DNA of 43,330 bases from an uncultured Rhizobiaceae bacterium. Its GTDB lineage: Bacteria > Pseudomonadota > Alphaproteobacteria > UBA828. Below are positions 6,473 through 36,001 of this stretch, piece after piece. The notes below the pieces were generated by a model, which searched no databases, was not told the origin of the DNA, and saw only the letters and a list, made by a program, of their open reading frames with translations. Both the position numbers and the translations under genes were made by a program. Numbering within the stretch: the stretch's first letter is position 1; each line of letters opens with the position of its first letter. The stretch lies in assembly GCA_964623955.1 (NCBI GenBank), contig CAZUVO010000005.1:1-43330 (forward strand), read 5' to 3'.

Positions 6473-6488
6473 GCGGAAAAACAGGCGT

Positions 6489-8659: not shown

Positions 8660-8665
8660 TGCAAA

Positions 8666-9759: not shown

Positions 9760-9816
9760 CGGTGAACTGGCCCTCTCCATGACCCTGCAGACAGCCTCTC
9801 CACGACGGGTGAATTT

Positions 9817-12868: not shown

Positions 12869-12893
12869 GCGTCGATCGGCCGGGGCGACAGCG

Positions 12894-16087: not shown

Positions 16088-17680
16088 ATGTCGCAAATAG
16101 CTGATCTATTGGAGGCGTATTACAGAATCGGGCAGCGGAGGTCCGAATCGCCCACTGCGCTATTTCCGTCCCAGAGATCCGATGTATCGCAAGAACTAAA
16201 CCGGCTTTGGGGAAAATATTCTCAGGAATTAAAAATTCTTTCGGATCATTTGGGCACGCAATATAAAAAGAAGATGCCCCAGGGTTTGTCGGGAGGATGC
16301 GGTGATCTGGAAGGGGAATTGCTGTATATATTGATTCGGAAATTGAAGCCTGAACTCATTTATGAGATATCGCCAAATACGGGATTTTCGACGAATTATT
16401 TACTTGCAGCGGTTACGGAAAATAAGTCAGGCCGGATAGAGGGGTTTGAAATAATTGAAGAAATAGATGGCGTATCGATAAATGAAATTGTATATGGGAA
16501 ATTATTACCGATATGCGACAAAGAGAGATATCACCTTAATGTCGGAGACGCTCGAATCAACTCGCTAGAACGTATTACACAGCAAGCGCCGGATTTTACT
16601 TTGATCGATTCCTGCCATGACGATTTTTTTGCAGAATTTTATGTGAAGGAATTATTTCCTCGCTGCTGCGGAACAATTGTCATGCAGGATATTGCTCACT
16701 TCGATCCGCGGCCGGAATGGTCGACAGAAGCCTATTATGTTCTTTCCTATTTGCAAAAAACCGCCAGCGAGTATCTGTTGTTCGGCGACTATGAAGATGC
16801 GTTGTTTAACAATAGCGCTCGCGACGAATTCTCCGTTCGCCGCCCCTGCAGAAGCAATTGCATCGTCGTCTCGCTCGGCGACGCGCCGGTGACGTCGGAG
16901 CCGGCGGAAAGATTTCTCGGCTATCTAAGTGGCGAGTCGGAGCCGGGCGATGGCATGGCGTCCGCATACCCTCTGACTTTCGAAATTCTTGGGGGAACGT
17001 TGCGCCGATCGTTCCCGTCGGAAGATGCACGGCCCGAGGACGATTATGTCGCCGCGATGACGGCCGATCAGTGGCGCGCCGGCAGCCCGGCATTCGCGGA
17101 TATGCTCGCTCTCTCGCTGGGCCGAACGTCACTGAAGGGGGCGCCTCCGGGAGAATTGGCCCAGGCGGCGCAATCCTTCGATGCCACCCAGCGCGTATTG
17201 GCGCTCGAAGCTTTGGCACGCGCGGGCGCGCGGGACGATATGAAGACGATCCTCTCCACGGTCGAGAATGACCCGCCGCGCGGGGGTGAGTTGCACCTGC
17301 GCATCGCGGAGACCGCATTGCGGCTCGGGTATCGTGCCGAGGCCGAGCGTTGGGCGGAGCGGGCGCATGAGAATTCGAAGGATTTAAGCCTGGCGGTCGG
17401 TTATCGTCATTCGATGCAGGCGGCGCGCATATTGTTGCGTTTGGGCCAAGCGGCGAGGGCGCGCAGTTTTTTCAGAGAAGCGCTGGAAGGATTGACCCGG
17501 CGCCATGACGACGTCATGGCGAAGGCCAGCGCGGAGGCTTTTGCGATCGCGCTGCGCCATCCCGTCTTTCTGCCCATCGCTCTCGGATCCGGCATCGATA
17601 AAGGCGCTATCATGGTGGCGGCGAAATCCCTTATCCGATCGATTGCGCGAAAGGTCGCGAGAAAAATTCTTGCCGCATGA
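16088..17680 (+). CDS. Fusion protein: N-terminal class I SAM methyltransferase-like domain (Methyltransf_24/CmcI-like) plus C-terminal Ala/Arg-rich helical-repeat (TPR-like) domain
   Basis: 'LIYEISPNTGFSTNYLLAAVTENKSGRIEGFEI' and 'LIDSCHDDFFAEFYVKELFPRCCGTIVMQDI'. C-terminal part: 'LRIAETALRLGYRAEAERWAERAHE...LLRLGQAARARSFFREALE'. Base composition switches from AT-rich to GC-rich near 16850. Confidence 0.55.
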   Translation: MSQIADLLEAYYRIGQRRSESPTALFPSQRSDVSQELNRLWGKYSQELKILSDHLGTQYKKKMPQGLSGGCGDLEGELLYILIRKLKPELIYEISPNTGFSTNYLLAAVTENKSGRIEGFEIIEEIDGVSINEIVYGKLLPICDKERYHLNVGDARINSLERITQQAPDFTLIDSCHDDFFAEFYVKELFPRCCGTIVMQDIAHFDPRPEWSTEAYYVLSYLQKTASEYLLFGDYEDALFNNSARDEFSVRRPCRSNCIVVSLGDAPVTSEPAERFLGYLSGESEPGDGMASAYPLTFEILGGTLRRSFPSEDARPEDDYVAAMTADQWRAGSPAFADMLALSLGRTSLKGAPPGELAQAAQSFDATQRVLALEALARAGARDDMKTILSTVENDPPRGGELHLRIAETALRLGYRAEAERWAERAHENSKDLSLAVGYRHSMQAARILLRLGQAARARSFFREALEGLTRRHDDVMAKASAEAFAIALRHPVFLPIALGSGIDKGAIMVAAKSLIRSIARKVARKILAA

Positions 17681-17729
17681 GAAGCTTCCGGCGACGAACC
17701 GTCGAAGACCAACTTAAATATAGGGGTAC

Positions 17730-17760
17730 GGGCTAAGGTTCCGGCTACGGAATTTAGCCC
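17730..17760 (+). terminator. Stable hairpin 50 nt after the fusion gene stop (terminator-like, no U-tract)
   Basis: GGGCTAAGGTTCCG-GCTA-CGGAATTTAGCCC forms 7 bp, a G.U pair and 5 bp with one bulged G and a 4-nt loop. Confidence 0.3.
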
Positions 17761-17805
17761 AACAATAAATTCGGCCAGTTGTTACGTTTTCTTGAGGTTA
17801 AACAA

Positions 17806-18783
17806 ATGCCAAGAAGAATAATTGGATATTTAAAACTTAAGATATCCCAGAGTTCGTATAAATTTCTTACCGGATTGGCCCGCCAGCAAAAGATAAAAGC
17901 ATTGGCGCCTTCTTTCTTACGCAAGTTTGTTTCTAAACACATTGTCAAAAAAGTGGTCGATATTTACGATCGCGAGCGGCTGCTGCAACGGGTCGACGAG
18001 AAGACAATTTTGCTCGCCGATTACCCACGCTGCGGCATCGCATGGGTGCGTTTCACCATGGCGACGGTCTTGCATTACCGTACGAATAATGAATTCCGAA
18101 AATTGACGTTTCCGGAATTGGGAAGTTATTGTCCCACTATTCACAGCCATGGCGAGTTCGACCCTATTTATTTTAATGACGGGGTCAGCTTCATAAGGAC
18201 CCATTCGCACTATTATCCGGAATATCGCCGCGCGATCATGATTTATAGAGATCCGTTCGAGGCGATCAAATCGCTTCATACCCATGAAAGCTATACCCTT
18301 GACGATGTTGATTTTGAGCTGTCCTACGTGTCCAGGCGGGAGGGGCATGTGCTTTCGGGTGAAAAATATGAAGGCTTGTCGGAGGACGAATCATTTCTCG
18401 TCTATTGGAGCAACCAGTATGTGATTCATCATGAAACATGGATTACGGCAATTAACCCACGCCCGGACGATTTTCTGATTGTCAAATATGAGGATATGCT
18501 TGAGCGGTGCGCCGACCTACTGCCTGCCATGATTTCGTTTTCGGGGCTTGACCAGCCGCCTTTGACGCAAGATCAGATATCCACGCTTGCCGGCATGTAC
18601 ACCCGGCGCCACGCCAATTGGAGATCGGATGACGATATCGCCTATCGCGACAAGAATTTTCACCGGCTTGAGAACATCATGTGTCTCAGCGAATTGGAGC
18701 GATTAAATCAGGGCCTTGCACGCCGGATCGAGAATATTTTCGCGCAACTTGACGCGCTGCGCCATCGGCCGCGGCAGGGCTGA
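17806..18783 (+). CDS. Sulfotransferase-like protein, paralogue 1
   Basis: 5'-PSB-like loop 'YPRCGIAW' (cf. PKSGTTW). 3'-PB-like 'IRTHSH...IMIYRDPFEAIKSL' (cf. RNPxDxxxS). 'VKYEDMLERCADLLPAMISFSGL' (cf. YEDL....FLG). AT-rich codon usage. Confidence 0.6.
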   Translation: MPRRIIGYLKLKISQSSYKFLTGLARQQKIKALAPSFLRKFVSKHIVKKVVDIYDRERLLQRVDEKTILLADYPRCGIAWVRFTMATVLHYRTNNEFRKLTFPELGSYCPTIHSHGEFDPIYFNDGVSFIRTHSHYYPEYRRAIMIYRDPFEAIKSLHTHESYTLDDVDFELSYVSRREGHVLSGEKYEGLSEDESFLVYWSNQYVIHHETWITAINPRPDDFLIVKYEDMLERCADLLPAMISFSGLDQPPLTQDQISTLAGMYTRRHANWRSDDDIAYRDKNFHRLENIMCLSELERLNQGLARRIENIFAQLDALRHRPRQG

Positions 18784-18839
18784 CAATCGCGGAACCTATC
18801 GTATGGCAGTCGAAGCAACGTGAAAGCCCGGCAGGTAGA

Positions 18840-19841
18840 ATGATAAGGTTTCTCATACGCGGCATTACCAGGCGTCTCTATTTCCTCCTCATGAGGGCCG
18901 CCCATCAACAGAGGTTGAAGGCCGCGGCGCCCCGGTTTGTGCGCAAATTTATTTCGCGCATTGTCGTCAGGGCCGTCGTCGACACCTATGACCGCGAGCG
19001 GCGGCTGCAGCGGGTGGATGACGACACCATATTGCTGGCTGATTTTCGCCGCTGCGGCGTGGCGTGGTTGCGATTTGTCCTGACCACCGTGTTGCACTAT
19101 CGCGCCACGGGGGAATTCCGCAAACTTGCGCATCAGGAGTTGGAAAACTACTGCGCCACGATTCATGGCCACGAGAAGTTTTCCCCTTATTACTTCAACG
19201 ACGGCACTTCTTTTCTAAAAACCCATTCTCATTTTTATCCTGAATTCCGCCGGGCGATCATGATTTATCGTAACTCTTATGAGGCGATAAAATCGCTTTA
19301 TACCCAAGAGAGCTACACGCTAAACAATATTTCCCAAATGTATAATTTTGACCTGTTTCGCGGCACGGACCGCGAGAAAGTGCCGCTATCGGGTGACAAA
19401 TATGAAGGCCTTTCGGTGGATGAATCATTTCTGGTCTATTGGTCGGCGGAATATGTCAGGCATCACGAGACCTGGCTCGCGGCGATTCGAGAGCGTCCCG
19501 ACGATTTTCTCGTGTTCAAATATGAAGACATGCTCGACAATTGCGCGGCGCTTCTGCCGGCAATGATTTCCTTTGCAAAATTGGATGCGCCGCCTCTGAC
19601 CGGGGAGCAAATATCGGCGCTTGCCGGCATGTATACGAGAAAATACAGCAATTGGCCGAAGGACGAAGACTTGAGCTATCGCGACAATAAATTTTCCGAA
19701 CTTGAAAACGTTATCAGCCCGCGCGAATTAAACCGTCTCAACGCAGCACTTGCGCGGCGCATCGAAGAAATCCATGCCGAGCTCGACGATGTGCGGCAGC
19801 CGATAATGGCCTGTTCCCCGGCGATGACCGCGCAACATTGA
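18840..19841 (+). CDS. Sulfotransferase-like protein, paralogue 2 (tandem duplicate)
   Basis: Collinear with paralogue 1 over nearly the full length: 'FRRCGVAW', 'LKTHSH...IMIYRNSYEAIKSL', 'FKYEDMLDNCAALLPAMISFAKL'. By eye roughly 60% identical. Confidence 0.6.
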   Translation: MIRFLIRGITRRLYFLLMRAAHQQRLKAAAPRFVRKFISRIVVRAVVDTYDRERRLQRVDDDTILLADFRRCGVAWLRFVLTTVLHYRATGEFRKLAHQELENYCATIHGHEKFSPYYFNDGTSFLKTHSHFYPEFRRAIMIYRNSYEAIKSLYTQESYTLNNISQMYNFDLFRGTDREKVPLSGDKYEGLSVDESFLVYWSAEYVRHHETWLAAIRERPDDFLVFKYEDMLDNCAALLPAMISFAKLDAPPLTGEQISALAGMYTRKYSNWPKDEDLSYRDNKFSELENVISPRELNRLNAALARRIEEIHAELDDVRQPIMACSPAMTAQH

Positions 19842-24470: not shown

Positions 24471-25436
24471 ATGACAGAAGATAATTACGGCCTCCCGCCC
24501 GAGCGGCTCATCGCGCTCTATAGATCCGTCGTTCGGATTCGCCGGGTGGAAGAGGAAACCGCCAAAATCTATCCGAGCGATCTGGTCAAAAGCCCCATTC
24601 ATTTGTCGATCGGCCAGGAGGCGGTGTCCGTCGGCGTGTGCGATATTCTCGAGCCCGAGGATATCGCTTACGGGACCTATCGCGGGCACGCGCTTTATCT
24701 CGCCAAGGGCGGCGACCTGAAGGCGATGGTCGCGGAATTGTTCGGCCGTGAAACAGGCTGCGCCGGCGGCAAGGCGGGTTCCATGCACCTGGTCGATCCC
24801 GCCGCCAATGTGATGGGCATGTCGGCCATCGTCGCCACCCATATACCGCTCGCGGTGGGCCACGCCTTCGCCGTCAAGTCGAGGGGTCTGGCGGCGATCG
24901 TGGTTTGCTTTTTCGGCGAAGGCGCCGCCGACGAGGGCGCGTTTCACGAAGCGATGAATTTCGCCGCCCTGAAAAACCTGCCGCTGCTGTTCGTCTGCGA
25001 AAACAATCGGCTGGCCATCCATTCGCCGGCCGAGGACAGAATGGCGGGCCCGGGATTGGCGGCGCGGTTTTCATCCTACGGTGTCGCGGGGCGCAACATC
25101 GACGACGAGAACATTTTCTCGATCCGCGCCGCCGCCGAAGACCTGGTGGGTGAGATTCGCGGCGGCGGCGGCCCGCGCTATCTCGAATGCAGAACCTCCC
25201 GCTGGCGCGAGCATGTCGGCCCGGCGGAGGATTGGGATGCGGCTTACCGCGACGCGGCGGAAGAGCGCGCGCGGTCGGCCAAGGATCCGGTGGCGTTTCT
25301 CGCCGCGCTGTTGGATGCCGAGACGCGGGCGGCCCTGGACAGCGAAATCGCGGCGGAAATAAGCGAGGCCTTTAAATTGGCCGAGGCCGCGCCCTATCCG
25401 CCGGCGGACGCGTTGAACCATCATGTGTTCGGATAG
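24471..25436 (+). CDS. ThDP-dependent 2-oxoacid dehydrogenase E1 component, alpha subunit-like
   Basis: 'SPIHLSIGQEAVSVG', 'GKAGSMH', and the ThDP motif 'FFGEGAADEGAFHEAMNFAALKNLPLLFVCENN' (GEG in place of the usual GDG). Confidence 0.85.
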   Translation: MTEDNYGLPPERLIALYRSVVRIRRVEEETAKIYPSDLVKSPIHLSIGQEAVSVGVCDILEPEDIAYGTYRGHALYLAKGGDLKAMVAELFGRETGCAGGKAGSMHLVDPAANVMGMSAIVATHIPLAVGHAFAVKSRGLAAIVVCFFGEGAADEGAFHEAMNFAALKNLPLLFVCENNRLAIHSPAEDRMAGPGLAARFSSYGVAGRNIDDENIFSIRAAAEDLVGEIRGGGGPRYLECRTSRWREHVGPAEDWDAAYRDAAEERARSAKDPVAFLAALLDAETRAALDSEIAAEISEAFKLAEAAPYPPADALNHHVFG

Positions 25437-26487
25437 TTCCGCCGTGCGCGAGATCACCTACGGCCAAGCCCTGTTCGAGGCGACGCGCCAGGAAATGGCG
25501 CGCGACGATAGCGTCTTCGTGTTCGGCCAAGGGGTCGACGACCATAAGGGCCATTACGGCACCACGCTCAACCTGCACCGGGAATTCGGCGCCGAGCGCT
25601 GCTTCGACACGCCGCTCGCCGAGGACGCGATGACCGGCATGGCGGTGGGTGCCGCGCTTGCCGGCATGCGGCCGATCCATGTCCATCAGCGCATGGATTT
25701 CCTGCTGCTGTGCATGAACCAGCTCATCAATATGGCGGCGAAATTCTCCTATATGTTCAACGGAACCTACCGCGTGCCGCTGGTCGTCCGCGCCTCCATC
25801 GGGCGAAGCTGGGGGCAGGGGCCGCAGCATTCGCAGGCCCTGCATGCCATGTTCATGCATGTGCCCGGCTTGAAAGTCGTCGCGCCGACCACGGCGCATG
25901 ATGCCAAGGGCTGCCTCACAGCGGCGATCCGCGACAACAACCCGGTCGTCTTTATCGAGCATCGCATGCTCTATGGGCTGTCGGGTCATGTCGCGGAAGA
26001 GAGCTACGAAATCCCCTTCGGGCAGGCGCGCCGATTGACCGAGGGCGGTGATATCACCATCGTTGCGATCAGCCATATGGCGGTCGAGGCGCTGCGCGCG
26101 AGACACCATCTGCAATCCGTCGGAATATCCGCCGAAATCATCGATCCGGTCAGCCTCAGCCCGATCGATTGGGATACCATCCTGACGTCGGTGGAAAAGA
26201 CCGGGAGACTGCTGGTTGTCGACAATGGCTGGCTCAGTTGCGGCGCCTCGGCGGAAATCGTCGCGGAGACCGTCGAACGGCTGCAGGGCAGACGCGGCAT
26301 CACCGTCGGCCGGATGGGCTTTTCGCCATCGCCCTGCCCGACAACGCGGCCGCTTGAGCGCCTGTTTTATCCCAATGACCGGACCATCGCCGCGCGCGCC
26401 CACCGGCTGGTGAAGGGTGGCGACGAGTCCTGGATGCCGGCGGGCGGCGACTCCGCGGAAATCACGGAATTTCGCGGGCCGTTTTGA
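25423..26487 (+). CDS. ThDP-dependent 2-oxoacid dehydrogenase E1 component, beta subunit-like
   Basis: 'ITYGQALFEATRQEMARDDSVFVFGQGV', 'RCFDTPLAEDAMTGMAVGAALAGMRPI', 'PGLKVVAPTTAHDAKG'. 14-nt overlap with the alpha subunit. Confidence 0.85.
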   Translation: MCSDSSAVREITYGQALFEATRQEMARDDSVFVFGQGVDDHKGHYGTTLNLHREFGAERCFDTPLAEDAMTGMAVGAALAGMRPIHVHQRMDFLLLCMNQLINMAAKFSYMFNGTYRVPLVVRASIGRSWGQGPQHSQALHAMFMHVPGLKVVAPTTAHDAKGCLTAAIRDNNPVVFIEHRMLYGLSGHVAEESYEIPFGQARRLTEGGDITIVAISHMAVEALRARHHLQSVGISAEIIDPVSLSPIDWDTILTSVEKTGRLLVVDNGWLSCGASAEIVAETVERLQGRRGITVGRMGFSPSPCPTTRPLERLFYPNDRTIAARAHRLVKGGDESWMPAGGDSAEITEFRGPF

Positions 26488-26523
26488 GCATATAATAATA
26501 AGACAATCGGTGAGGTAGCGGCT

Positions 26524-27816
26524 TTGTCTTCAGACAGGAAATCGGACGACGCCCGGGCGGCGGCGCGGGACGCGCTGCGCGGCGCCATCGAACGGGGCTG
26601 GCGGCTCGAGAAGGAAAAGTTGGCCGCGGCGCGCGGCAAGCGGTTCAAGCTGCATGAGCCGACCTTCGGGGTCGATGAAATACTCGCCGCCGTCGATTGC
26701 ATGCTGACCTCCTACGTGACGATGGGAAAGCGCGTCGCGCAATTGGAGCGAATGTTCGCCGAGGTGATCGGCGTGCCGGAGGGCATCTCCTGCAATTCCG
26801 GCTCGTCGGCCAATTTGTTGGCGATCGGCGCCTTGGCGAACGGTCACACCAAGGACGGCTTGCGCCCGGGCGACGAGGTCATCGTGCCGGCGCTGGCCTG
26901 GTCGACGACGATCTGGCCGCTGGTGCAGCACGGGCTCGTGCCGGTCATCGTCGATATCGATCCGCTGACCTTGAACATCGATCCGAACGAGGCGGCGCGG
27001 GCGGTGAGCGACAAGACCCGCGCGATTCTGCCGGTGCATGTCTATGGCAATCCGTGCGACATGGATGCGCTGCAAGCCCTATGCGACCGCCACGATTTGA
27101 TCCTCATCGAAGATGTCTGCGAGGCCATGGGCGGAAGTTATAAAGGCCGGGCGCTTGGCCAGTTCGGACGGGTGTCGACCTTCAGCTTCTATTTCTCCCA
27201 TCACATCACCACCTTCGAAGGCGGCATGTGCCTGACCGGCGACGATGCGCTCGGCGATACGATGCGGATCCTGCGCTCCCATGGCTGGATTCGGGAGGCC
27301 AAGGACCAAGCGCGTTACACCGAACGCCATCCCGGCATCGATCCGCGCTTTCTCTTCGTCAATACCGGTTACAATTTGCGTTTGACGGAAGTCCAGGCGG
27401 CGGTCGGCCTCGAGCAGGTGCCGAAGCTGGACGGATTTCTGGCGCAGCGGCGGGAGGCCGCCGCCCTCTGGGAAGGCGTCTTCGCCGCCCATTGCGAGAC
27501 CCTGCAAACCCAGCGCGAGACGCCGGGCGGCGGCCATGCCTGGTTCGGCTTCCCGGTGACGGTCAAGCCCGGCGCGCCCTATTCCTGCGCGGCGGTCAGA
27601 AAGCATTTGGATGATTCCGGGGTCGAGACCCGGCCGATCATATGCGGCAATATCGCGCTACAGCCGGGCCTGCATGATTACGATTTTCGCACGGTGGGCG
27701 ATCTGGCCGCCGCCACCAACGTCATGCAAAACAGCTTTTCGATCGGCAATCATCATGCGGTCGGCGGCGAAGATGTGGACTGGGTGCGCGATCTGCTCAA
27801 TACCCTGCCGCACTGA
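26524..27816 (+). CDS. PLP-dependent nucleotide-sugar 3-dehydratase of the DegT/DnrJ/EryC1 superfamily (ColD/RfbH-E1 type)
   Basis: 'GKRVAQLERMFAEVIGVPEGISCNSGSSANLLAI', 'ILPVHVYGNPCDMD'. The active-site segment 'STFSFYFSHHITTFEGG' has His (codon 27199-27201) where aminotransferases carry the Schiff-base Lys. TTG start, uncertain. Confidence 0.75.
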   Translation: MSSDRKSDDARAAARDALRGAIERGWRLEKEKLAAARGKRFKLHEPTFGVDEILAAVDCMLTSYVTMGKRVAQLERMFAEVIGVPEGISCNSGSSANLLAIGALANGHTKDGLRPGDEVIVPALAWSTTIWPLVQHGLVPVIVDIDPLTLNIDPNEAARAVSDKTRAILPVHVYGNPCDMDALQALCDRHDLILIEDVCEAMGGSYKGRALGQFGRVSTFSFYFSHHITTFEGGMCLTGDDALGDTMRILRSHGWIREAKDQARYTERHPGIDPRFLFVNTGYNLRLTEVQAAVGLEQVPKLDGFLAQRREAAALWEGVFAAHCETLQTQRETPGGGHAWFGFPVTVKPGAPYSCAAVRKHLDDSGVETRPIICGNIALQPGLHDYDFRTVGDLAAATNVMQNSFSIGNHHAVGGEDVDWVRDLLNTLPH

Positions 27817-27845: not shown

Positions 27846-28562
27846 TTATTCAAGAACGAATTTCTGGGCCGCTTGGTAATCTTCCGGCACGCCGATATCG
27901 AGGAATCGTCCGTCTTGGCGATGGCCATAAAGGCCCTTGCCGATCAGGGAGGGGAAAATTTCAGTTTCAAGGGAAAGCGGGCGATGAGGCGGAAATCCGT
28001 CGAGCAGGTTTCGGCGAAGCAAATATACGCCGGCATTGATCCAATCGCTCGACCGGCTGCCTTTTTCGTCGAACCTGGTGACCCGGCCGGCATCGTCCGT
28101 CGTGACGCCGCCATAGCGCTCGGCCTCGGGAAACGGCGCCAGGGCGAGACAGGCGCGGAGGTCTTTTTTGCCGGCGCTCCAATCGAGAAAGGCCGGCAAA
28201 TCAAGATCGAACAAAGTATCGCCGTTCATCGCCAAGGCGAATTCGGAATGCCACTGGGCGGCGCTGAGGGCAAGCGCGCCGGCGGTGCCGAGCGATCGGT
28301 CCTCGCGCGAATAACCGATCGCGATCTCTTCGAACTCGCCGCCGATGGTTTGCCGGATCTCCTCTGCGCCATGGCCGGTGCAACAGATCGCCCGGCGAAT
28401 GCCCGCTTTGTTCAACCGGGCGAGCAAATGATGCAGAAACGGCCGGCCGGCGACCGGCACGATCGCCTTCGGCGTATCGCCCGTCGCCGCGCGCAAGCGG
28501 GTGCCGAGCCCGCCGGCGAGAATGACGGCGGGCAGCTCGGATGGAGGCGGTAATCTCGTCAT
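27846..28562 (-). CDS. hddC: Sugar-1-phosphate nucleotidylyltransferase (D-glycero-D-manno-heptose-1-P guanylyltransferase-like)
   Basis: ATG at 28562 within ORF 27846..28718. 'AVILAGGLGTRLRAATGDTPKAIVPVAGRPFLHHLL', 'LGTAGAL'. The symbol rests on context (an HddA-like kinase in the same module). Confidence 0.65.
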   Translation of the reverse strand: MTRLPPPSELPAVILAGGLGTRLRAATGDTPKAIVPVAGRPFLHHLLARLNKAGIRRAICCTGHGAEEIRQTIGGEFEEIAIGYSREDRSLGTAGALALSAAQWHSEFALAMNGDTLFDLDLPAFLDWSAGKKDLRACLALAPFPEAERYGGVTTDDAGRVTRFDEKGSRSSDWINAGVYLLRRNLLDGFPPHRPLSLETEIFPSLIGKGLYGHRQDGRFLDIGVPEDYQAAQKFVLE

Positions 28563-28686: not shown

Positions 28687-29649
28687 ATGAAGATACTGAT
28701 TACCGGCGTCACCGGCATGGTTGGAAGCCACCTCGCCGACTATGTTCTCGCCAATCACCCCGATGTCGAAATCCACGCCTCGGTTCGCTGGCGCAGCCCG
28801 CGCGACAATATCGGCGATATCCTGGATCAGATTCATTTACACGCCGCCGATTTGCACGATCTCGGTTCGCTGATCCGGCTCATGCGGGATTTGCAGCCCG
28901 CCCGCATCTTCCATTTGGCGGCGCAATCCTATGTCGTCGACAGCTTCTCCCTGCCCGCCGATACGATCCATATCAACACCATCGGCACGACCAATTTGCT
29001 CGAGGCGGTGCGCCTGTCGGAAGTGGATCCCTTGATCCACATCTGTTCATCCTCCGAGGTGTACGGCCAGGTGCGCGAGGACGAAGTGCCGATCCGGGAG
29101 GACAATCCCTTCCGCCCGGCGAGCCCCTACGCGGTATCGAAGGTCGGCGAGGATATGATCGCGCTGCAATATTTTCTGTCCTACGGTATCCGCACGATCC
29201 GCACGCGCATGTTCACCCATACCGGGCCGCGCCGCGGCGATGTGTTCGCGGAAAGCGCCTTCGCCCGGCAGATCGCCAGGATCGAGGCGGGGTTGACCGA
29301 GGACAATGTCGTGCGGGTGGGAAATCTCGACAGCATCCGGACCTTTGCCGATGTGCGCGATGCGGTGCGCGCCTATTGGCTGTTGCTGGAAAAATGCGAA
29401 CCCGGCGAGGTCTACAATATCGGCGGCGACCGGACGGCAACCATCGGCGAGATGTTGGAAATCCTGAAATCGCGGGCGAATTGCGAGATCCGTCATGAAG
29501 TGTCGGAGGATTTGCTCCGGCCGTCGGACGTGACCCTGCAGATTCCCGATACCGGCAAATTCCGCGGCGCGACCGGCTGGCAATCCGAAGTGCCGCTCGA
29601 GCAAACCATGGAAGATTTGTTGAACTACCACCGGGCCAGGCTCGCCTGA
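28687..29649 (+). CDS. GDP-mannose 4,6-dehydratase-family SDR (Gmd/Rmd/heptose 4,6-dehydratase-like)
   Basis: ATG 28687 within ORF 28501..29649. 'MKILITGVTGMVGSHLADYVL', 'IFHLAAQSYV', 'SSSEVYG', catalytic 'YAVSKVGEDM'. Confidence 0.75.
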   Translation: MKILITGVTGMVGSHLADYVLANHPDVEIHASVRWRSPRDNIGDILDQIHLHAADLHDLGSLIRLMRDLQPARIFHLAAQSYVVDSFSLPADTIHINTIGTTNLLEAVRLSEVDPLIHICSSSEVYGQVREDEVPIREDNPFRPASPYAVSKVGEDMIALQYFLSYGIRTIRTRMFTHTGPRRGDVFAESAFARQIARIEAGLTEDNVVRVGNLDSIRTFADVRDAVRAYWLLLEKCEPGEVYNIGGDRTATIGEMLEILKSRANCEIRHEVSEDLLRPSDVTLQIPDTGKFRGATGWQSEVPLEQTMEDLLNYHRARLA

Positions 29650-29663
29650 CACGGAACCGCTTC

Positions 29664-30683
29664 ATGACAGCAACAGAAGATTTTTTTCACGACAAAACCG
29701 TACTGGTCACCGGCGGCACCGGGCTGATCGGCCAGCCCCTGGTGAGTTTGCTGGTCGCGGCGGGCGCTAAGGTGAAGGTGGTGTCGCTCGACCCGCCGTC
29801 CCGCGCGCCTGAGGGCGCCGAATTCGTTCGCGCCGATCTCCGCGATCTGGCGGCCTGCGAAAAGGTCTGCGCCGGTAGCGATCTCGTGTTTCATCTCGCC
29901 GGCGTCAAGGGCTCTCCCGCGGTCACCGCGACGCGCCCGGCGACGTTTTTCGTCCCCACCCTCATGTTCAGCATCAATATGATGGAGGCCGCGCGCCGCG
30001 CCGGCGTCGCGCGCTATCTCTTCGCCAGCAGTGTCGGCGTCTATGCGCCGGCGGCGTTGTTTCGCGAGGACGATGTCTGGCAGACCTTCCCGTCCGACAA
30101 TGACAAATTCGCCGGCTGGGCCAAACGCATGGGCGAGCTGCAGGCCGAGGCCTATAGGATCGAATATGACTGGGACAAGATTTCCATCGTCCGCCCGGCC
30201 AATGTCTACGGGCCCTATGACAATTTCGACGATGAAAATGCGATGGTCATCCCGTCGCTCATCCGCCGCGCGCTATCCGGCGAAAATCCGATGGCGATCT
30301 GGGGCGACGGCTCGCCGATCCGGGATTTTATTTTTGCCGAGGATGTCGCCCGCGGCATGATGCTGATGATGGCCAAGGGCGTCTCCGAGCCGGTGAATTT
30401 GGGCAGCGGCCGGCCGGTTTCGATCCGCGAATTGGTGGAGGTCATTCTGGCTTGTCTCGACGATGCGCCCGACGTCGCCTGGGATGCCTCGAAACCGAGC
30501 GGCGATAAAGAGCGCCTGATGTGCATGGAACGGGCGGGCAGCTATGGCTTCGAGCCGCGGGTCTCGCTCGCCGACGGAATCGCCCGGACGATCGCCTGGT
30601 ACCGCCAACACAAAGCCGTGCCGGACAAGGGCTATAACGCCTTTACAGATCCGGCGCTGACCCCGGACCGCGCGGGATCGTGA
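29664..30683 (+). CDS. NAD-dependent epimerase/reductase, GDP-L-fucose-synthase-like (paralogue 1)
   Basis: 'VLVTGGTGLIGQPL', 'FASSVGVYAP', 'FAGWAKRMGELQ', 'IVRPANVYGPYDNFDDENAMVIPSLI' (cf. Fcl 'NLYGPxDNF...SHVIPAL'). Confidence 0.7.
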   Translation: MTATEDFFHDKTVLVTGGTGLIGQPLVSLLVAAGAKVKVVSLDPPSRAPEGAEFVRADLRDLAACEKVCAGSDLVFHLAGVKGSPAVTATRPATFFVPTLMFSINMMEAARRAGVARYLFASSVGVYAPAALFREDDVWQTFPSDNDKFAGWAKRMGELQAEAYRIEYDWDKISIVRPANVYGPYDNFDDENAMVIPSLIRRALSGENPMAIWGDGSPIRDFIFAEDVARGMMLMMAKGVSEPVNLGSGRPVSIRELVEVILACLDDAPDVAWDASKPSGDKERLMCMERAGSYGFEPRVSLADGIARTIAWYRQHKAVPDKGYNAFTDPALTPDRAGS

Positions 30684-31426
30684 GCCGGATGCAACGCGCA
30701 GCGATCGTCACCGGCGCGAGCCGCGGCATCGGCGCGGCGGTTGCAACGGTCTTGGCGGGCCAAGGCTATGCGGTCTGCGTCAACTATCTGCGCGACACGG
30801 AAGCCGCCGACCGGGTGGTCGCGGATATCGCCGGCGCCGGCGGCACCGCGCGGGCGGTCCAGGCGGATATCGCCGAACCGGACCAAATCGCCCGCCTGTT
30901 CCGGAGCGTGGACGAAATGGACGCGCCGCTCGGCGCGCTGGTGAACAATGCCGGGTTTAGCGGCGGGCGAAAGAAATTCACCGATCTCGGGGTCGAGGAT
31001 TTCAATGCGGCGCTCGGGGTGCATTTGATCGGCCCGGCCCTCTGCACCCAGGAAGCGGTCAAACGCATGGCGACGAGCCAAGGTGGAAACGGCGGCGCGA
31101 TCGTCAATGTGACATCGCAGGCGGCGGTGACCGGCGGCCGGCGGCTTCTGCCCTATGCGGCGGCGAAGGCGGGCCTCGCCGTCATGACCCTGGCCCTGGC
31201 GCATGAGCTCGCGGCCGAGGGTATTCGGGTCAACGGCGTCAGCCCGGGCGTGATCGAAACCGATTTGGCGTCCGCCGATCACGCGGACCGCGACGCAATC
31301 GAAAAAACCATCGCCCTCGGGCGCCTCGGCCAACCGCGGGAAGTCGCCGATACGGTGGCCTGGCTATTGTCCGACAAGGCGTCCTATGTGACCGGCATTA
31401 CCGTCCCGGTCACCGGCGGGCGTTGA
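30680..31426 (+). CDS. Classical SDR oxidoreductase (FabG-like ketoreductase)
   Basis: 'AAIVTGASRGIGAAVA', 'LVNNAG', 'NVTSQAA', 'YAAAKAGL', 'RVNGVSPGVIETD'. Confidence 0.8.
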   Translation: MSRMQRAAIVTGASRGIGAAVATVLAGQGYAVCVNYLRDTEAADRVVADIAGAGGTARAVQADIAEPDQIARLFRSVDEMDAPLGALVNNAGFSGGRKKFTDLGVEDFNAALGVHLIGPALCTQEAVKRMATSQGGNGGAIVNVTSQAAVTGGRRLLPYAAAKAGLAVMTLALAHELAAEGIRVNGVSPGVIETDLASADHADRDAIEKTIALGRLGQPREVADTVAWLLSDKASYVTGITVPVTGGR

Positions 31427-32406
31427 TTGAGGAGCGCGCGCAACCCGTGAGCGAACGCAAAACACTCATCATCTGCGGCGCGACCGGATTTATCGGGCGC
31501 AATCTGGTCGAGGCCTATGCCGGCGATCCGGCATTTCGCGTCATCGCCGTGTGGCATCTGGAGCCGCCCTTCGACATGGACGGCGTCGAATGGCGGCAAG
31601 CGGATTTGACGGATGCCGCGGATGTCGCGGATTGTCTCGCCGGCGTCGATATCGTCCTTCAGGCGGCGGCGACGACCTCCGGGTCCAAAGACATCGTTTC
31701 CCGGCCGCATATTCATGTCACCGACAATGCGGTGATGAATTCGCTGCTGCTGCGCGCTGTGCACGATCTGGGTGTGGCGCACTTCGTGTTTTTCAGTTGC
31801 ACGGTCATGTATCAAAGTTCCGAGACACCGCTCGGCGAATCCGATTTCGACGAATCGGTGCCGCTCCATCCCAATTATTTCGGCGTCGGCTGGACCAAGG
31901 TTTATGTCGAAAAGATGTGTGAGTTTTATTCCCGCCAGGGAGAGACGAAATTCACCATTATCCGCCATTCCAATATTTACGGGCCGCACGACAAGTTCGA
32001 CCTGGAAAAATCGCATGTCTTCGGCGCGACCATGACCAAGGTCTGCACCGCGTCGGACGGCAAGGTGAGCGTGTGGGGGACCGGCGAGGAATCGCGCGAC
32101 CTGCTCTATGTCGGCGATTTGGTGGATTTCGTGCGCCGCGCGGTCGCCGGTCAGGCCGTACAATACGGGCTATACAATTGCGGCGCCGGGCAGGCGGTGA
32201 CGATCCGCCGCCTCGTCGAAATGATCGTGGCCGCGGAAAATCCCGGCCTTGCCATCGAACATGACCTCTCCAAGCCGACCATCAAGACGTCTCTGTCGCT
32301 GGACTGTACCAAGGCAAGCGACGAGCTGGGCTGGCGGCCGCAAATATCGCTCGCCGAGGGGATTGGTGAAACCCTTCGCTGGTGGCATGCTCACATTGGA
32401 ACCTAA
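31423..32406 (+). CDS. NAD-dependent epimerase/reductase, GDP-L-fucose-synthase-like (paralogue 2)
   Basis: 'LIICGATGFIGRNL', 'FFSCTVMY', 'GWTKVYVEKM', 'IIRHSNIYGPHDKFDLEKSHVFGA'. TTG 31423 or GTG 31447 start. Confidence 0.7.
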   Translation: MIEERAQPVSERKTLIICGATGFIGRNLVEAYAGDPAFRVIAVWHLEPPFDMDGVEWRQADLTDAADVADCLAGVDIVLQAAATTSGSKDIVSRPHIHVTDNAVMNSLLLRAVHDLGVAHFVFFSCTVMYQSSETPLGESDFDESVPLHPNYFGVGWTKVYVEKMCEFYSRQGETKFTIIRHSNIYGPHDKFDLEKSHVFGATMTKVCTASDGKVSVWGTGEESRDLLYVGDLVDFVRRAVAGQAVQYGLYNCGAGQAVTIRRLVEMIVAAENPGLAIEHDLSKPTIKTSLSLDCTKASDELGWRPQISLAEGIGETLRWWHAHIGT

Positions 32407-32468
32407 CGGCGCGCTATGTTGTTATCCCTGGCGCGGCGGAATCTTTTCTCAGTGAATTCAGGTAGCGA

Positions 32469-33572
32469 ATGAGCTTCGACGCAGTTCTCACGACAACGAT
32501 CCATGTCCCGACTTTTTTCGAAGGCGTTTGTGCGAACGCTCGCGACCATGGGCATGAAAATATCAGATTTTATGTCATCGGCGATCATAAGACGCCCGCC
32601 GGGGCCGGCGAGTTCTGTGCCTCGATGGAGAAGAAGTTCGGGCTTGAGTTTCAATATTACGACGTGCCCCAACAGGTCGCGGTCGTCGAGAAAATCCCCG
32701 GCGCCGAGCGAATCCTTCCCTACAATTGGGGCGGGCGCAAAATGCTCGCCAACATTCTCGCCTATCGCGACGGCGCCGAACGCCTGATCATGCTGGACGA
32801 CGATAATTTCATGACCGGCTCGGACTTTTTCGGCGGGTACGGCGCGGTGGGGCGCGAGAGCGAGTTGAATTTGGTGTCTTCGGAAAGCGGCTGGTTCAAT
32901 ATCTACCGTGGCGTGGTCGAGGAGAAAGCGCTGCCGATTTACCCGCGCGGCTATCCCTGGAGCAAGCGGTTCGGCGCGGACGAGGATTGGCGGATGAAGC
33001 CGGCGCGCGGCACCGTCGCCGCGCTCAACGGATTCGTTTTGGGAGACCCGGATATCGACGCCATCACCCGCTTGTTTTCGCCGATTCGGGTTCAGGCCAT
33101 GGCAGCGGAATTCGCCCCCGGATTTGCCCTCGCGCCCGGGACCTGGTCGTCCTGGAACAATCAGAACACGGCGCTCTCGCGCGCCGCCGCGCCGGCCTAT
33201 TTCACGCCGCCGGCGGCCGGGCGGAATTCCGATATATGGGCGGCCTTCGTCATCTGCAAACTCTCCGCCCATTTTGATGAACTGGTGGCATTCGGCGAGC
33301 CGCTGGTCGAGCAGGTGCGAAATCCACATAATCTGTGGCGCGACCTTGAGGACGAACTGCCCAACAACAAGGCCAACGAGTATTTTCTCGATATTCTACG
33401 CACGGCGGAACTGAGCGGCGAAGATTACCTGGCGGCTCTCGCTTCCCTGATCGAGCACGCTCTCGCCGGCACCGAGGCGGGCGGCAACATGCCCGACAAT
33501 GCGCGACGCGAGATCGCCGGATTTTTTGAGGAATACCAAATCTGGCACGGCATTATGGCCGCGCTCTCATGA
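32469..33572 (+). CDS. Reversibly-glycosylated-polypeptide / UDP-arabinopyranose-mutase-like (GT75-like) protein
   Basis: Collinear matches to plant RGP/UAM as I remember it: 'LIMLDDDNF' (cf. IFTIDDDCF), 'IYPRGYPWSKR' (cf. DFVRGYPFSLR), 'NGFVLGDPDIDAITRL' (cf. HGLWLNIPDYDAPTQL), 'RNSDIWAAFVICKL' (cf. RYDDMWAGWCVKVI). Confidence 0.55.
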   Translation: MSFDAVLTTTIHVPTFFEGVCANARDHGHENIRFYVIGDHKTPAGAGEFCASMEKKFGLEFQYYDVPQQVAVVEKIPGAERILPYNWGGRKMLANILAYRDGAERLIMLDDDNFMTGSDFFGGYGAVGRESELNLVSSESGWFNIYRGVVEEKALPIYPRGYPWSKRFGADEDWRMKPARGTVAALNGFVLGDPDIDAITRLFSPIRVQAMAAEFAPGFALAPGTWSSWNNQNTALSRAAAPAYFTPPAAGRNSDIWAAFVICKLSAHFDELVAFGEPLVEQVRNPHNLWRDLEDELPNNKANEYFLDILRTAELSGEDYLAALASLIEHALAGTEAGGNMPDNARREIAGFFEEYQIWHGIMAALS

Positions 33573-34561
33573 TCATCAGCCGGACCCCGTTTCGTATTTC
33601 CTTCTTCGGCGGCGGCACGGATTATCCGCAATGGTACCGCGAGCATGGCGGCTCGGTCATCAACACGACGATCAATAAATATTCCTTCATCACGGCCCGC
33701 CTGCTGCCGCCCTTCTTCGACTACCGCTACCGCATTCGTTATTACGAAACCGAGGAAATTTCCGCCGTCGAGGAAATCCGCCATCCCTCCGCGCGGGAAT
33801 GCCTCAAGCTCTGTGACTTTGGCGACGGCCTGGAGATCGTGCACCATGCCGACCTGCCGGCGCGCTCGGGCCTCGGCTCGAGCTCGACCTTCACGGTCGG
33901 ACTGCTGAACGCGCTGGCCGGTCTCGACAACCAGATGATGAGCAAGAAGGAGCTTGCGCTGCGCGCCATTCATGTCGAGCAGGATCTGATCGGCGAGGCG
34001 GTTGGGTCGCAGGATCAGACCGCCGCTGCGTTCGGCGGCTTCAACCGAATCGATTTTCGCGCCGAGCATGACATCACCGTGACGCCGATCTTGATGTCGC
34101 CCGAGCGCCGGCAGGAGCTGGAAGACCATCTGATGCTGATATTCACCGGTTTCGCCCGCAACGCGCCCGAAATTGCCGCAAATCAGATAAACGAGATGAA
34201 GAACAAGCAAACCGAGCACGCCGCGATCCAGACCTTGACCGAGGAGGCGTTCCGGCTGTTTGCCGCCGACGGCTGGAGCGTCGCGGAATTTGGCCGGCTG
34301 TTGCATGAGCAGTGGATGATCAAACGGGGAATCACCTCGCAAATCGCCAATGAATTCATCGACGAAATTTATCAGGCGGGGCGAAGCGCGGGTGCGATGG
34401 GCGGCAAACTGCTCGGCGCCGGCGGAGGCGGGTTCATGGCCTTCGTCGCCAAGCCCGAGGATCAGGCGAACATACGGCAGAAACTGGAAAAGCTGCTATA
34501 TGTGCCATTCCGCTTCGAAAGCTCGGGCAGCCAGATCGTTTACTATGCGAACCATGCGTGA
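33569..34561 (+). CDS. hddA: GHMP-family sugar kinase (D-glycero-D-manno-heptose-7-phosphate kinase-like)
   Basis: 'MIISRTPFRISFFGGGTDYPQWYREHGGSVINTTINKYSFI', GHMP motif 'DLPARSGLGSSSTFTVGLL', 'GGKLLGAGGGGFMAF'. Confidence 0.75.
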   Translation: MIISRTPFRISFFGGGTDYPQWYREHGGSVINTTINKYSFITARLLPPFFDYRYRIRYYETEEISAVEEIRHPSARECLKLCDFGDGLEIVHHADLPARSGLGSSSTFTVGLLNALAGLDNQMMSKKELALRAIHVEQDLIGEAVGSQDQTAAAFGGFNRIDFRAEHDITVTPILMSPERRQELEDHLMLIFTGFARNAPEIAANQINEMKNKQTEHAAIQTLTEEAFRLFAADGWSVAEFGRLLHEQWMIKRGITSQIANEFIDEIYQAGRSAGAMGGKLLGAGGGGFMAFVAKPEDQANIRQKLEKLLYVPFRFESSGSQIVYYANHA

Positions 34562-34651: not shown

Positions 34652-36001
34652 ATGAATATCCTGATCCTCTCGGAAGATATTCCCTTCGAGACCGTTAAGC
34701 GCAAAGGGATATCGGCGGTAAATATTCAACTGTTCCTCATCGCGCGCGAATTATCCGAGTTGGGCAACAAGGTTGCTTTCTTGTCGCTGGAGCGAAATGA
34801 GAAAGCGAGCTCCGGCGATCGGTGCGCCGATCCGGATGTGATCGATGCCGGCAAGAGTGGCAAATTCGAAATTTTGCCGCCCCTCTATGTTGCCTCTCGC
34901 GACTCATCCGCCGAGCGGTCGAAATTCTTGGCGCGCCTCAAGCGCATAGTGATGGGCATTTTCGGAACGATTCCGGCGAAGGAATTTTATCCCTCAATTC
35001 AAATGGGAGGCGGCGTTACCCGGCGGGCGGACGAATTTGGCGCCGATGTCCTTCTCGCCTTTGTGAGCCCCCTTGCGGCCGGCGCCATGGCCACGGCGTC
35101 GAACTATCCGAAAATCATATTCCAGGGAAATCTCGATCACATAACCGATCGCCTGCGCCTCGATTTCGATTATCTGTTCGCCAAATCGCCCGCTTCTTCC
35201 GGTTGGCTGGGCATCCGTCCTCATCTGTCGCGCTACATTCGCGAAAAATATGTACAAAGATATGAGGCCTCCCACGGCCGGATATCCTTATGCGCCGATG
35301 CCGTGGCCAATACCGCGGCGTGCAACAATCGTTTCTATGAGGATATCGGCCACCCGCGAACGGTCTATGTCGGGACGACCTGGTCGGATCGTCCTCCGGT
35401 TTCGGTCGATCGGGAGACGGAAGTTGAGCGCGACGGTAGCGCTGAGCACCCCTATAAGATCATCGGCCATGTCGGCTTGCTGAATATGACGGCCTCCACC
35501 TTCGGTCTGGCCTATCTTCTGCAAGAGGTGATGCCGGCATTGCGCCGGGAAATGCAGGATCATAGATTCGAGGTCCATGTCATCGGCGACGGCGCGCCGG
35601 TCGAGCCGTTGCGGCCCTATTTAACGCAGGAAAACTTGCATGTTCGCGGATATGTCGAAGACCTCGATTCCGAGCTGCACGATTGCGATGTTTTTCTGTT
35701 CCTCAATAATGCCGGGCCGCTCAAGGCGATATTCAGCCGTCAAATCATGTCCTGGGCTATGGGACTGTGCCTGATCGCCCATGCGGGCAGCCGGGAAGCG
35801 CTGCCGGAGCTTGCCCATGGCGACAATGCCCTTATCGGGACGACACCGGATGAATTGGCGGAATTGGTAGCGCAGGCATGCCTCGACGGGGATTTGAATC
35901 GCAAGTTGCGGCAGGGCGGAAGGGCCACCTATGAAAATAATTTTTCGCCGACCGCGCTGTCCAAAAAATTGGTATCCATAATGGAAGAAGTTATTTCTTA
36001 G
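34652..36001 (+). CDS. GT-B-like glycosyltransferase (divergent)
   Basis: ATG 34652 within ORF 34568..36001. 'MNILILSEDIPFE...NIQLFLIARELSELGNKVAFLS', and a C-terminal region 'YKIIGHVG...FEVHVIGDG...DVFLFLNN...HGDNALIG'. Intermediate GC. No clean EX7E. Confidence 0.45.
   Translation: MNILILSEDIPFETVKRKGISAVNIQLFLIARELSELGNKVAFLSLERNEKASSGDRCADPDVIDAGKSGKFEILPPLYVASRDSSAERSKFLARLKRIVMGIFGTIPAKEFYPSIQMGGGVTRRADEFGADVLLAFVSPLAAGAMATASNYPKIIFQGNLDHITDRLRLDFDYLFAKSPASSGWLGIRPHLSRYIREKYVQRYEASHGRISLCADAVANTAACNNRFYEDIGHPRTVYVGTTWSDRPPVSVDRETEVERDGSAEHPYKIIGHVGLLNMTASTFGLAYLLQEVMPALRREMQDHRFEVHVIGDGAPVEPLRPYLTQENLHVRGYVEDLDSELHDCDVFLFLNNAGPLKAIFSRQIMSWAMGLCLIAHAGSREALPELAHGDNALIGTTPDELAELVAQACLDGDLNRKLRQGGRATYENNFSPTALSKKLVSIMEEVIS

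Follow-up and report, generated by a model that had tools for sequence, protein, structure and literature searches.

What does a protein that carries the motifs of the plant reversibly glycosylated polypeptides (RGPs) and UDP-arabinopyranose mutases (UAMs) do inside a bacterial nucleotide-sugar operon? The question is raised by the gene at positions 32469 to 33572 (plus strand) of contig CAZUVO010000005.1 from an uncultured Rhizobiaceae bacterium; the whole 43,330-nucleotide stretch that was analyzed is called the window below. An initial annotation, made from the letters alone, had described the gene product as a plant-type RGP/UAM-like protein and suggested that it either contracts the sugar ring of the pathway product to a furanose or glycosylates itself. 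We place the protein in glycosyltransferase family GT75 and propose, from sequence comparison, a predicted structure, and analogy with characterized enzymes, that it is probably a divalent-cation-dependent, flavin-independent mutase of the MtdL/Hyg20 type, which would contract a GDP-linked 6-deoxy, probably heptose-derived pyranose.

The open reading frame (ORF) begins with ATG and encodes 367 amino acids. As the initial annotation had noted, it lies between an Fcl-like reductase (an extended short-chain dehydrogenase/reductase, or SDR, at 31423 to 32406) and an HddA-like GHMP kinase (33569 to 34561), and its TGA stop shares an ATGA at 33569 to 33572 with the start codon of the kinase gene. 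The four RGP/UAM motifs that had been recognized are all present and in order:

32796 to 32810, plus strand: DDDNF motif, amino acids 110 to 114
32943 to 32963, plus strand: PRGYPWS motif, amino acids 159 to 165
33048 to 33074, plus strand: PDIDAITRL motif, amino acids 194 to 202
33231 to 33245, plus strand: DIWAA motif, amino acids 255 to 259

When the 367-residue protein was shuffled 200,000 times with its composition preserved, the four patterns occurred, in the order listed, at frequencies of 2e-4, 0, 0, and 5e-3; because these frequencies are near zero, the joint collinear occurrence of the motifs is not a matter of chance. The claimed collinearity also held in an alignment of the profile of homologs with rice UAM2 (PDB 8CID), in which the four motifs are in register (profile/8CID: DDDNf/DDNCL, ypRGfpwS/FVRGYPFS, DPDiDAitR/NADYDPMTH, and DIw/DVW). 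A 308-amino-acid ORF on the opposite strand, at 32403 to 33329, was rejected as a shadow ORF of high-GC DNA.

To which family does the protein belong? A phmmer search with the 367-residue sequence matched the MtdL structures 7XPR and 7YUA over residues 5 to 331 (E = 2.4e-39). MtdL is the GT75 pyranose-furanose mutase for GDP-L-galactose as well as GDP-L-fucose in the A201A pathway of Marinactinospora thermotolerans (structures 7XPR, 7XPS, and 7YUA; PMC9937993). A family profile built from a 47-sequence alignment of database homologs matched MtdL over its full length (4 to 366; E = 1e-97) and rice UAM2 with an E-value of 2.5e-6. The AlphaFold2 model of the protein (pLDDT 95.7, pTM 0.94) has a secondary structure that fits the three-region architecture of MtdL, in which a Rossmann-like GT-A region at the N-terminus and a unique core rich in beta structure are joined by a three-helix region at the C-terminus (PMC9937993). 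In a Foldseek search with this model, the MtdL structures were the best matches (TM-score 0.91, E = 3.5e-35; 7XPS over 381 columns). Rice UAM2, the plant comparison that had been suggested, came second (E = 7e-14, TM-score about 0.6), and other GT-A folds reached TM-scores of at most 0.45.

Judged by sequence and predicted fold, membership in GT75 (the RGP/UAM/MtdL family) is secure, and the sequence comparisons make bacterial MtdL, not a plant enzyme, the nearest relative within a large bacterial branch. The RGP/UAM label is thus sound at the level of the superfamily, while the qualifier "plant-type" is imprecise. The accompanying remark that the family has no characterized bacterial members was mistaken: MtdL and Hyg20 are characterized GDP-L-galactose/GDP-L-fucose mutases with crystal structures, and as of 2023 these two enzymes, from two actinomycete antibiotic pathways, were the only characterized bacterial members of GT75 (PMC9937993).

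Scans of the 367-residue protein against Pfam and NCBIfam returned no match of any kind, and none in Pfam even at E ≤ 10. The Pfam RGP model PF03214 gave a divided result. It left the window protein unmatched at that threshold, an outcome that by itself would satisfy the condition for refutation set in the initial annotation, and it matched 19 of the 47 homologs (best E = 1.2e-17). The STELLO model PF03385 matched 18 of the 47, weakly, and not the window protein. The lack of a PF03214 match would suit the view that the motifs are a chance resemblance in an unrelated GT-A protein or a shadow ORF, but we give that view practically no weight. It is refuted by the MtdL E-values, the TM-score of 0.91, and the shuffle test, and it is at odds with an exhaustive profile search that returned 4,324 related clusters at 50% identity (1,478 of them at E ≤ 1e-30) and with orthologs of 81 to 85% identity in syntenic loci.

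Does the protein keep the residues that a mutase needs? We transferred residue roles from the crystallography and mutagenesis of MtdL (PMC9937993) by way of a MAFFT alignment and judged invariance over the 47 homologs:

32796 to 32807, plus strand: D110-D111-D112-N113, equivalent to MtdL D109-D111 and N112; the DXD metal/nucleotide motif; invariant in the 47 homologs
32946 to 32948, plus strand: Arg160, equivalent to MtdL Arg159; the auto-glycosylated arginine of plant RGPs and proposed nucleophile; invariant
33051 to 33053, plus strand: Asp195, equivalent to MtdL Asp195, which orients the catalytic arginine; invariant
33162 to 33164, plus strand: Gln232, equivalent to MtdL Gln229, which contacts the beta-phosphate and the sugar C2 hydroxyl; invariant
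33222 to 33233, plus strand: Arg252 to Asp255, equivalent to MtdL Arg257 (binding of the beta-phosphate and O5) and Asp260 (proposed general base); invariant
33312 to 33329, plus strand: Gln282-Val-Arg284-Asn-Pro-His287, equivalent to "loop A" of MtdL, His287-Pro-Arg289-Asn-Glu-His292; Arg284 and His287 (GDP binding) invariant
32727 to 32735, plus strand: Trp87-Gly88-Gly89, in place of the MtdL sugar/base contact loop Ser86-Asp87-Asn88; a clade-specific pocket signature

With the exception of Asp87, every residue whose mutation inactivates MtdL (D109, R159, D195, Q229, R257, and D260) has its counterpart in the window protein; the MtdL mutants R159K, D195N, R257K, and D260N are inactive (PMC9937993). 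Thr9, Ile11, and Asp39 correspond to the guanine-binding residues Thr13, Ile15, and Asp40 of MtdL, where Thr13 favors guanine and the UDP-using plant enzymes have proline (PMC9937993). The threonine at position 9 and the likeness of the neighboring gene products to GDP-sugar enzymes both point to GDP as the nucleotide. Further differences from the MtdL pocket are lysine for Asn42, asparagine for Ser228, and lysine for Arg90.

On family, fold, and gene context, we infer that ring contraction of the nucleotide sugar made by the neighboring enzymes, one of the two activities first suggested, is the best reading of the gene. By analogy with MtdL, Mn2+ would be held on the diphosphate by the DDD motif together with Gln282. 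Asp255 would deprotonate Arg160, and attack of Arg160 on C1 would displace GDP and leave a covalent arginine-sugar adduct. The expelled GDP would be retained by Mn2+, the DDD motif, Gln282, Arg252, Arg284, and His287; the sugar ring would open and reclose through O4, and return of the GDP would give the GDP-furanose. Self-glycosylation, the other activity suggested, is not an alternative to the mutase reaction, as an arginine-sugar adduct is the intermediate in the mechanism proposed for GT75 (PMC9937993).

Which sugar would such an enzyme receive? The gene belongs to a ten-gene module, which includes a glycosyltransferase gene, and lies in a tightly packed co-directional run; the guanylyltransferase gene is on the minus strand:

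24471 to 25436 and 25423 to 26487, plus strand: thiamine-diphosphate E1 alpha and E1 beta, a pair resembling pyruvate dehydrogenase E1
26524 to 27816, plus strand: DegT-family enzyme (Pfam DegT), closest to RfbH, a pyridoxamine phosphate-dependent sugar 3-dehydrase (NCBIfam RfbH, 324 bits)
27846 to 28559, minus strand: HddC-like sugar-1-phosphate guanylyltransferase, start codon uncertain (Yersinia HddC 5XHW/6JQ8, E = 1.5e-31)
28687 to 29649, plus strand: heptose-type GDP-sugar 4,6-dehydratase (Pfam GDP_Man_Dehyd; 7US5, E = 3e-79)
29664 to 30683, plus strand: Fcl-like extended SDR 1, with glycine at the Cys109 position and tyrosine at the His179 position of GDP-fucose synthase (GFS)
30680 to 31426, plus strand: classical, FabG-like SDR, identified by family scans
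31423 to 32406, plus strand: Fcl-like extended SDR 2, with the His179 equivalent kept and valine at the Cys109 position
32469 to 33572, plus strand: the GT75 gene (MtdL-like mutase homolog)
33569 to 34561, plus strand: GHMP sugar kinase, closest to the heptose-7-phosphate kinases HddA and WcbL; ATGA overlap with the GT75 gene
34652 to 36001, plus strand: GT4-type (GT-B) glycosyltransferase (Pfam Glyco_trans_1_4), a candidate user of a furanose donor

The dehydratase scored 270 bits against the Campylobacter jejuni GDP-heptose 4,6-dehydratase (7US5), 210 bits against Rmd, and at most 150 bits against the GDP-mannose dehydratases (Gmd). The kinase matched 3K85 (8e-40), HddA (2e-35), and WcbL (3e-35) far better than fucokinase (3e-20). 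The initial designation "heptose kinase" is plausible, although heptose as its substrate is unproven, with no GmhA or GmhB in the window. The guanylyltransferase matched HddC with 1.5e-31 and mannose-1-phosphate guanylyltransferases with 1e-26 to 1e-30. Both proteins fall below the NCBIfam equivalog cut-offs and are, on these scores, relatives of HddA and HddC rather than proven orthologs. Fcl-like SDR 1, in which the GFS epimerization dyad is missing, is probably a 4-ketoreductase only.

In the proposed pathway, a GDP-sugar would be produced by the kinase related to HddA together with the guanylyltransferase related to HddC, and the 4,6-dehydratase, the RfbH-like 3-dehydrase, the E1 thiamine enzyme, the two Fcl-like reductases, and the classical SDR would tailor it. 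The substrate of the GT75 enzyme is, from this context, most likely a GDP-linked 6-deoxy sugar supplied by the co-transcribed enzymes; it is probably heptose-derived and possibly a 3,6-dideoxy or C-branched sugar. The GT4 enzyme encoded downstream is the obvious candidate for placing the furanose into the surface polysaccharide of this Rhizobiaceae-like bacterium. Ring contraction would free an exocyclic hydroxyl, on which the conserved SDR could act. A possible parallel for the SDR beside the GT75 gene is Hyg26 of the hygromycin pathway, an SDR that oxidizes the exocyclic C5 hydroxyl of the furanose.

The window as a whole is a surface-polysaccharide locus; the rest of it encodes NeuB, a CMP-transferase, a KpsS-like protein, a 2-epimerase resembling WecB, and a transferase of the WbaP/WecA type. 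Among the window ORFs scanned against Pfam, none was a mutase of the FAD type (Glf). The GT75 protein itself has no GLF or FAD-binding domain match in Pfam, and its fold is GT-A and MtdL-like. A scan of the operon for promoters and terminators, internal terminators included, gave nothing above the expectation from shuffles, and an Rfam scan of the window gave no match.

Is this arrangement particular to one contig? From one genome per species, we collected 231 confirmed GT75 loci; individual loci are referred to here by number. The closest genomic relatives (L001 and L002, 81 to 85% identical) come from uncultured Rhizobiaceae metagenome-assembled genomes and are fully syntenic with the window, and an identical GT75 protein is found in several metagenomes. 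The module recurs in distant bacteria at 37 to 69% identity. In L084 (52% identity) there are genes for a fused E1, the dehydratase, an Fcl-like enzyme, the SDR, a second Fcl-like enzyme, GT75, the kinase, GT4, and DegT, and close by for an NTP-transferase, Wzx, a CMP-transferase (CTP_transf_3), and NeuB. L085 and L086 (37 to 40% identity) have the same enzymes, L085 also having a HAD phosphatase and a transaldolase, and L010 (41% identity, pocket loop TPD) has most of the module with no GT4 or DegT match. The E1 genes travel with GT75 in L002, L005, L010, and L084 to L086, and the RfbH-like DegT gene does so in L002 and L084 to L086; a GT4 gene follows the kinase gene directly in L001, L002, L081, and L084. 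Within the clade of the window protein (13 members, many on short contigs), GT75 is accompanied by the SDR in seven, by E1 beta and by the kinase in six each, and by the dehydratase in five.

Some of these loci carry further genes. L010 has three with no counterpart in the window, which encode a NUDIX hydrolase, a radical-SAM enzyme (its gene comes directly behind the GT75-SDR pair), and a 3,5-epimerase resembling RmlC (its gene lies between the two for the Fcl-like enzymes) (extra genes at 5437 to 6075, 11905 to 12909, and 14637 to 15155 of that locus). In L085 (937 to 3955), and likewise in L086, both of the WGG clade, genes for a HAD phosphatase, for a transaldolase/aldolase of the TAL_FSA type, and for the GHMP kinase form a group upstream of the module. 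We take this trio to resemble the LmbR/LmbP/LmbK/LmbO route to GDP-octose in lincomycin biosynthesis, and the sugar could presumably exceed hexose size.

The loop that replaces Ser86-Asp87-Asn88 of MtdL varies by clade across bacteria (SDN, SIQ, C[IV]Q, xGx, TPD, and WGG), and from these alignments the position behaves as a specificity determinant. The pocket motif correlates with the genes nearby: heptose-type genes accompany the C[IV]Q and xGx/WGG clades, and a lone epimerase accompanies the SIQ clade. The SIQ clade accounts for 32 of 80 loci (within L013 to L080), mostly from Bryobacterales, Patescibacteria (the candidate phyla radiation), and Acidobacteriota. Heptose genes are present in none of the 32, and in more than half a gene for an epimerase-like extended SDR lies no more than about 1 kb from GT75. 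Examples of SIQ loci are:

L013, 9120 to 11077
L022, 1828 to 3668
L030, 9213 to 11059

The SIQ loci may represent a two-gene epimerase-mutase cassette for a different nucleoside diphosphate-furanose.

Several observations weigh against the proposal that the window protein is a mutase for a heptose-derived GDP-sugar. The Pfam RGP model is silent on it. The Mn-ligand histidine of MtdL, His287, is replaced by Gln282 (33312 to 33314), and loss of the equivalent histidine accompanies lost nucleotide binding in the inactive AtRGP5 (PMC9937993). Asp87, which is essential in MtdL, is Gly88 here. Neither Fcl-like SDR has the canonical Cys109/His179 dyad of GFS, and the configuration of the sugar is therefore not predictable. 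Lastly, GmhA and GmhB were found neither in the 43-kb window (Pfam over 37 ORFs, and tblastn) nor by tblastn in L001, L002, L010, and L084, and because they are absent locally, a heptose origin is not established. The tblastn probes were E. coli GmhA and GmhB sequences, which were validated by strong matches in 12 other loci.

How much do these points count? The silence of PF03214 is, by the sequence matches, a case of a model that under-covers the bacterial branch and not evidence against GT75 membership, because 19 of the 47 homologs match it and the window protein itself matches MtdL. As to the metal ligand, glutamine occupies the His287 position in 42 of the 47 homologs and in 79 of the 80 genomic loci; because it is the majority state in the bacterial homologs, Gln282 is a family-wide feature under selection rather than a sign of decay. 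Its amide oxygen may still serve as a ligand of the metal. The active AtRGP1-3 keep the histidine ligand, and the inactive plant members lack Arg257 as well as the histidine (PMC9937993). That most bacterial GT75 homologs have glutamine in place of the Mn-binding histidine may mean that the bacterial branch as a whole prefers another metal or binds it with another geometry. As to Asp87, MtdL D87N and D87S are inactive, Asp87 contacts the C4 and C6 hydroxyls of the sugar, and Ser86 affects the choice of base, while the active plant enzymes have serine at the Asp87 position (PMC9937993). The Gly-Gly loop of the window protein could be roomy enough for a longer sugar side chain.

The same two replacements speak for the view that the protein is no mutase at all but a glycosyltransferase of the GT-A fold, a protein that glycosylates itself, or a partner without catalytic activity like the plant class-2 RGPs (AtRGP5 and OsUAM2) or STELLO-like proteins. 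The weak STELLO matches among the homologs point the same way, as does the fact that the matching plant structure is that of OsUAM2, the rice UAM2, which we take to be inactive. GT75 enzymes also have arginine glycosyltransferase activity (PMC9937993). We nevertheless regard a non-mutase as highly unlikely. The inactive plant members lose Arg257, whereas its equivalent Arg252 and all other catalytic and GDP-binding residues are invariant in the bacterial homologs, a family of thousands; rice UAM2 lacks R257, R289, and H292, all three of which the window protein keeps. The conserved glutamine points to selection and not decay, and the neighbors of the gene are enzymes that tailor nucleotide sugars, not a partner specific for an acceptor.

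If the protein is a GT75 mutase, could it act on a GDP-hexose of the GDP-L-fucose/GDP-L-galactose type, with the "heptose-like" kinase and guanylyltransferase activating a hexose? The missing GmhA and GmhB genes in the window and in L001, L002, L010, and L084 speak for this reading, the two Fcl-like genes resemble GDP-fucose synthase, and to our knowledge Rhizobiaceae lipopolysaccharide cores generally lack heptose. The guanylyltransferase, too, scores higher against the NCBIfam mannose-1-phosphate guanylyltransferase model (169 bits) than against the HddC model (137 bits), both scores being below the cut-off. For bacterial GT75 enzymes, the substrates that are known are GDP-L-fucose and GDP-L-galactose (PMC9937993). 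Against a hexose stand the dehydratase (270 bits to the GDP-heptose enzyme versus about 150 to GDP-mannose dehydratases), the kinase, which is nearer to HddA/WcbL (1e-35 to 1e-40) than to fucokinase (1e-20), and the WGG pocket loop, which differs from the SDN of MtdL. Moreover, orthologs of the kinase and dehydratase sit in complete GmhA/GmhB clusters beside GT75 genes. Full sets of GmhA, GmhB, kinase, guanylyltransferase, and dehydratase flank GT75 homologs in at least nine other loci, among them L005 of the clade of the window and eight C[IV]Q loci, and their kinases and dehydratases are about 46 to 53% identical to those of the window. The GmhA and GmhB genes of the organism may lie elsewhere in the genome. 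On balance, we consider a hexose substrate rather unlikely and favor the GDP-linked, probably heptose-derived 6-deoxy sugar.

How does the proposed mutase compare with known systems? It shares with MtdL full-length homology (about 29 to 35% identity), the three-region fold (TM-score 0.91), the catalytic set with Thr13, and a neighborhood of GDP-sugar enzymes. It differs in having glutamine for His287, WGG for SDN with loss of the essential Asp87, and Lys/Asn/Lys at Asn42, Ser228, and Arg90. The setting also differs, an actinomycete antibiotic cluster for MtdL and a surface-polysaccharide locus of a Rhizobiaceae-like proteobacterium here. The partners in the window are a heptose-type dehydratase and kinase, a dehydrase resembling RfbH, and an E1 enzyme that depends on thiamine, unlike the partner of MtdL, which is presumably a GDP-mannose 3,5-epimerase. 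Hyg20 of the hygromycin A pathway of Streptomyces hygroscopicus, compared by description only, is likewise a GT75 mutase. Its substrate, GDP-L-fucose, is a GDP-6-deoxy-L-sugar that a 4,6-dehydratase and a reductase of the Fcl type produce (PMC9937993). Hyg20 differs, as MtdL does, in its antibiotic-cluster context.

The plant enzymes (OsUAM1/3, AtRGP1-3; 8CID; PF03214) belong to the same superfamily, with collinear motifs, the same arginine, and the second-best structural match. They are flavin-independent and divalent-cation dependent (PMC9937993). Their similarity to the window protein is nevertheless remote (profile E = 2.5e-6, TM-score about 0.6, 13% identity), and PF03214 misses the window protein. 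They use UDP-sugars, have proline at the Thr13 position and aspartate at the Ser86 position, and their active members keep the histidine ligand. A functional analog may exist in the FADH2-dependent pyranose/furanose mutases of the Glf or UDP-galactopyranose mutase (UGM) type, those of C. jejuni included, which provide nucleoside diphosphate-furanose donors, 6-deoxy-heptofuranose included, for capsule or O-antigen. HS10.16 and HS41.15 of C. jejuni are predicted GDP-6-deoxy-heptopyranose mutases, uncharacterized as of 2023, and HS15.16 (UDP-arabinopyranose) and HS41.17 (CDP-fucose) of the same species are also of this type. Fold and cofactor are unrelated to those of GT75, the nucleophile being flavin N5 in the one case and an arginine, with Mn2+, in the other.

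Other parts of the window deserve brief mention. The E1 pair adjoining the RfbH-like enzyme (24471 to 27816) suggests yersiniose-like chemistry, in which a GDP-sugar undergoes 3,6-dideoxygenation and two-carbon branching. The genes at 6345 to 11511, which encode a synthase of the NeuB family, a cytidylyltransferase for CMP-sugars, and a capsule protein resembling KpsS, are nonulosonic-acid capsule genes. The region 16088 to 19841 is a low-GC island (0.49 to 0.57, with flanks of about 0.63 to 0.67) that holds two ORFs with weak matches to sulfotransferase domains and a 530-amino-acid ORF with no family match, and it may be an acquired glycan-sulfation cassette. Between 36000 and 42300 the GC content falls to 0.40 to 0.48. 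This region contains a 357-amino-acid ORF with no family match that is conserved in L001, L002, and L081, a 453-amino-acid polytopic membrane ORF with no family match (possibly a Wzy-like polymerase), a minus-strand Glycos_transf_4 gene of the WbaP/WecA type, and a gene for a 707-amino-acid B12-binding radical-SAM protein.

A more far-reaching hypothesis, which we put forward only tentatively and think unlikely to hold as stated, is that the GT75 clade with the WGG pocket and the glutamine ligand comprises flavin-independent mutases for GDP-linked higher-carbon deoxy sugars (6-deoxy- or 3,6-dideoxy-heptoses) in a conserved ten-gene pathway. Ring contraction would expose an exocyclic hydroxyl, the SDR would oxidize it, and the E1 enzyme would extend or branch the chain, so that surface glycans of rhizobia and other bacteria would contain an undescribed C-branched sugar of the heptose type in furanosidic form.

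A search of the accessible literature returned no prior link between GT75 and heptose or between RGP and O-antigen, nor one by way of 8CID. The type of enzyme is known, and the window protein is a divergent member of it; a new class of substrate is plausible, though unproven, and the pathway module is undescribed. Furanoses in bacterial glycans are usually credited to flavin-dependent Glf-type mutases, and the literature that we found on polysaccharide mutases, characterized or predicted, concerns that type throughout. The GT75 gene suggests that arginine/Mn2+ chemistry also serves surface-polysaccharide loci. It exposes, too, a gap in annotation, for the family comprises about 4,300 clusters, the Pfam RGP model misses it, and sources that name its members at all say "hypothetical protein." The correlation of pocket motif with gene context amounts to a set of testable specificity rules, and GT75 relatives could be a source of enzymes for making rare GDP-furanoses. 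The product of the locus is likely, for the organism, a strain-specific surface antigen. Should the hypothesis on the WGG clade be true, no GT75 mutase before that clade would have been assigned to polysaccharide synthesis in Gram-negative bacteria, and the clade would be a non-homologous counterpart of the FADH2-dependent heptofuranose mutases of Campylobacter.

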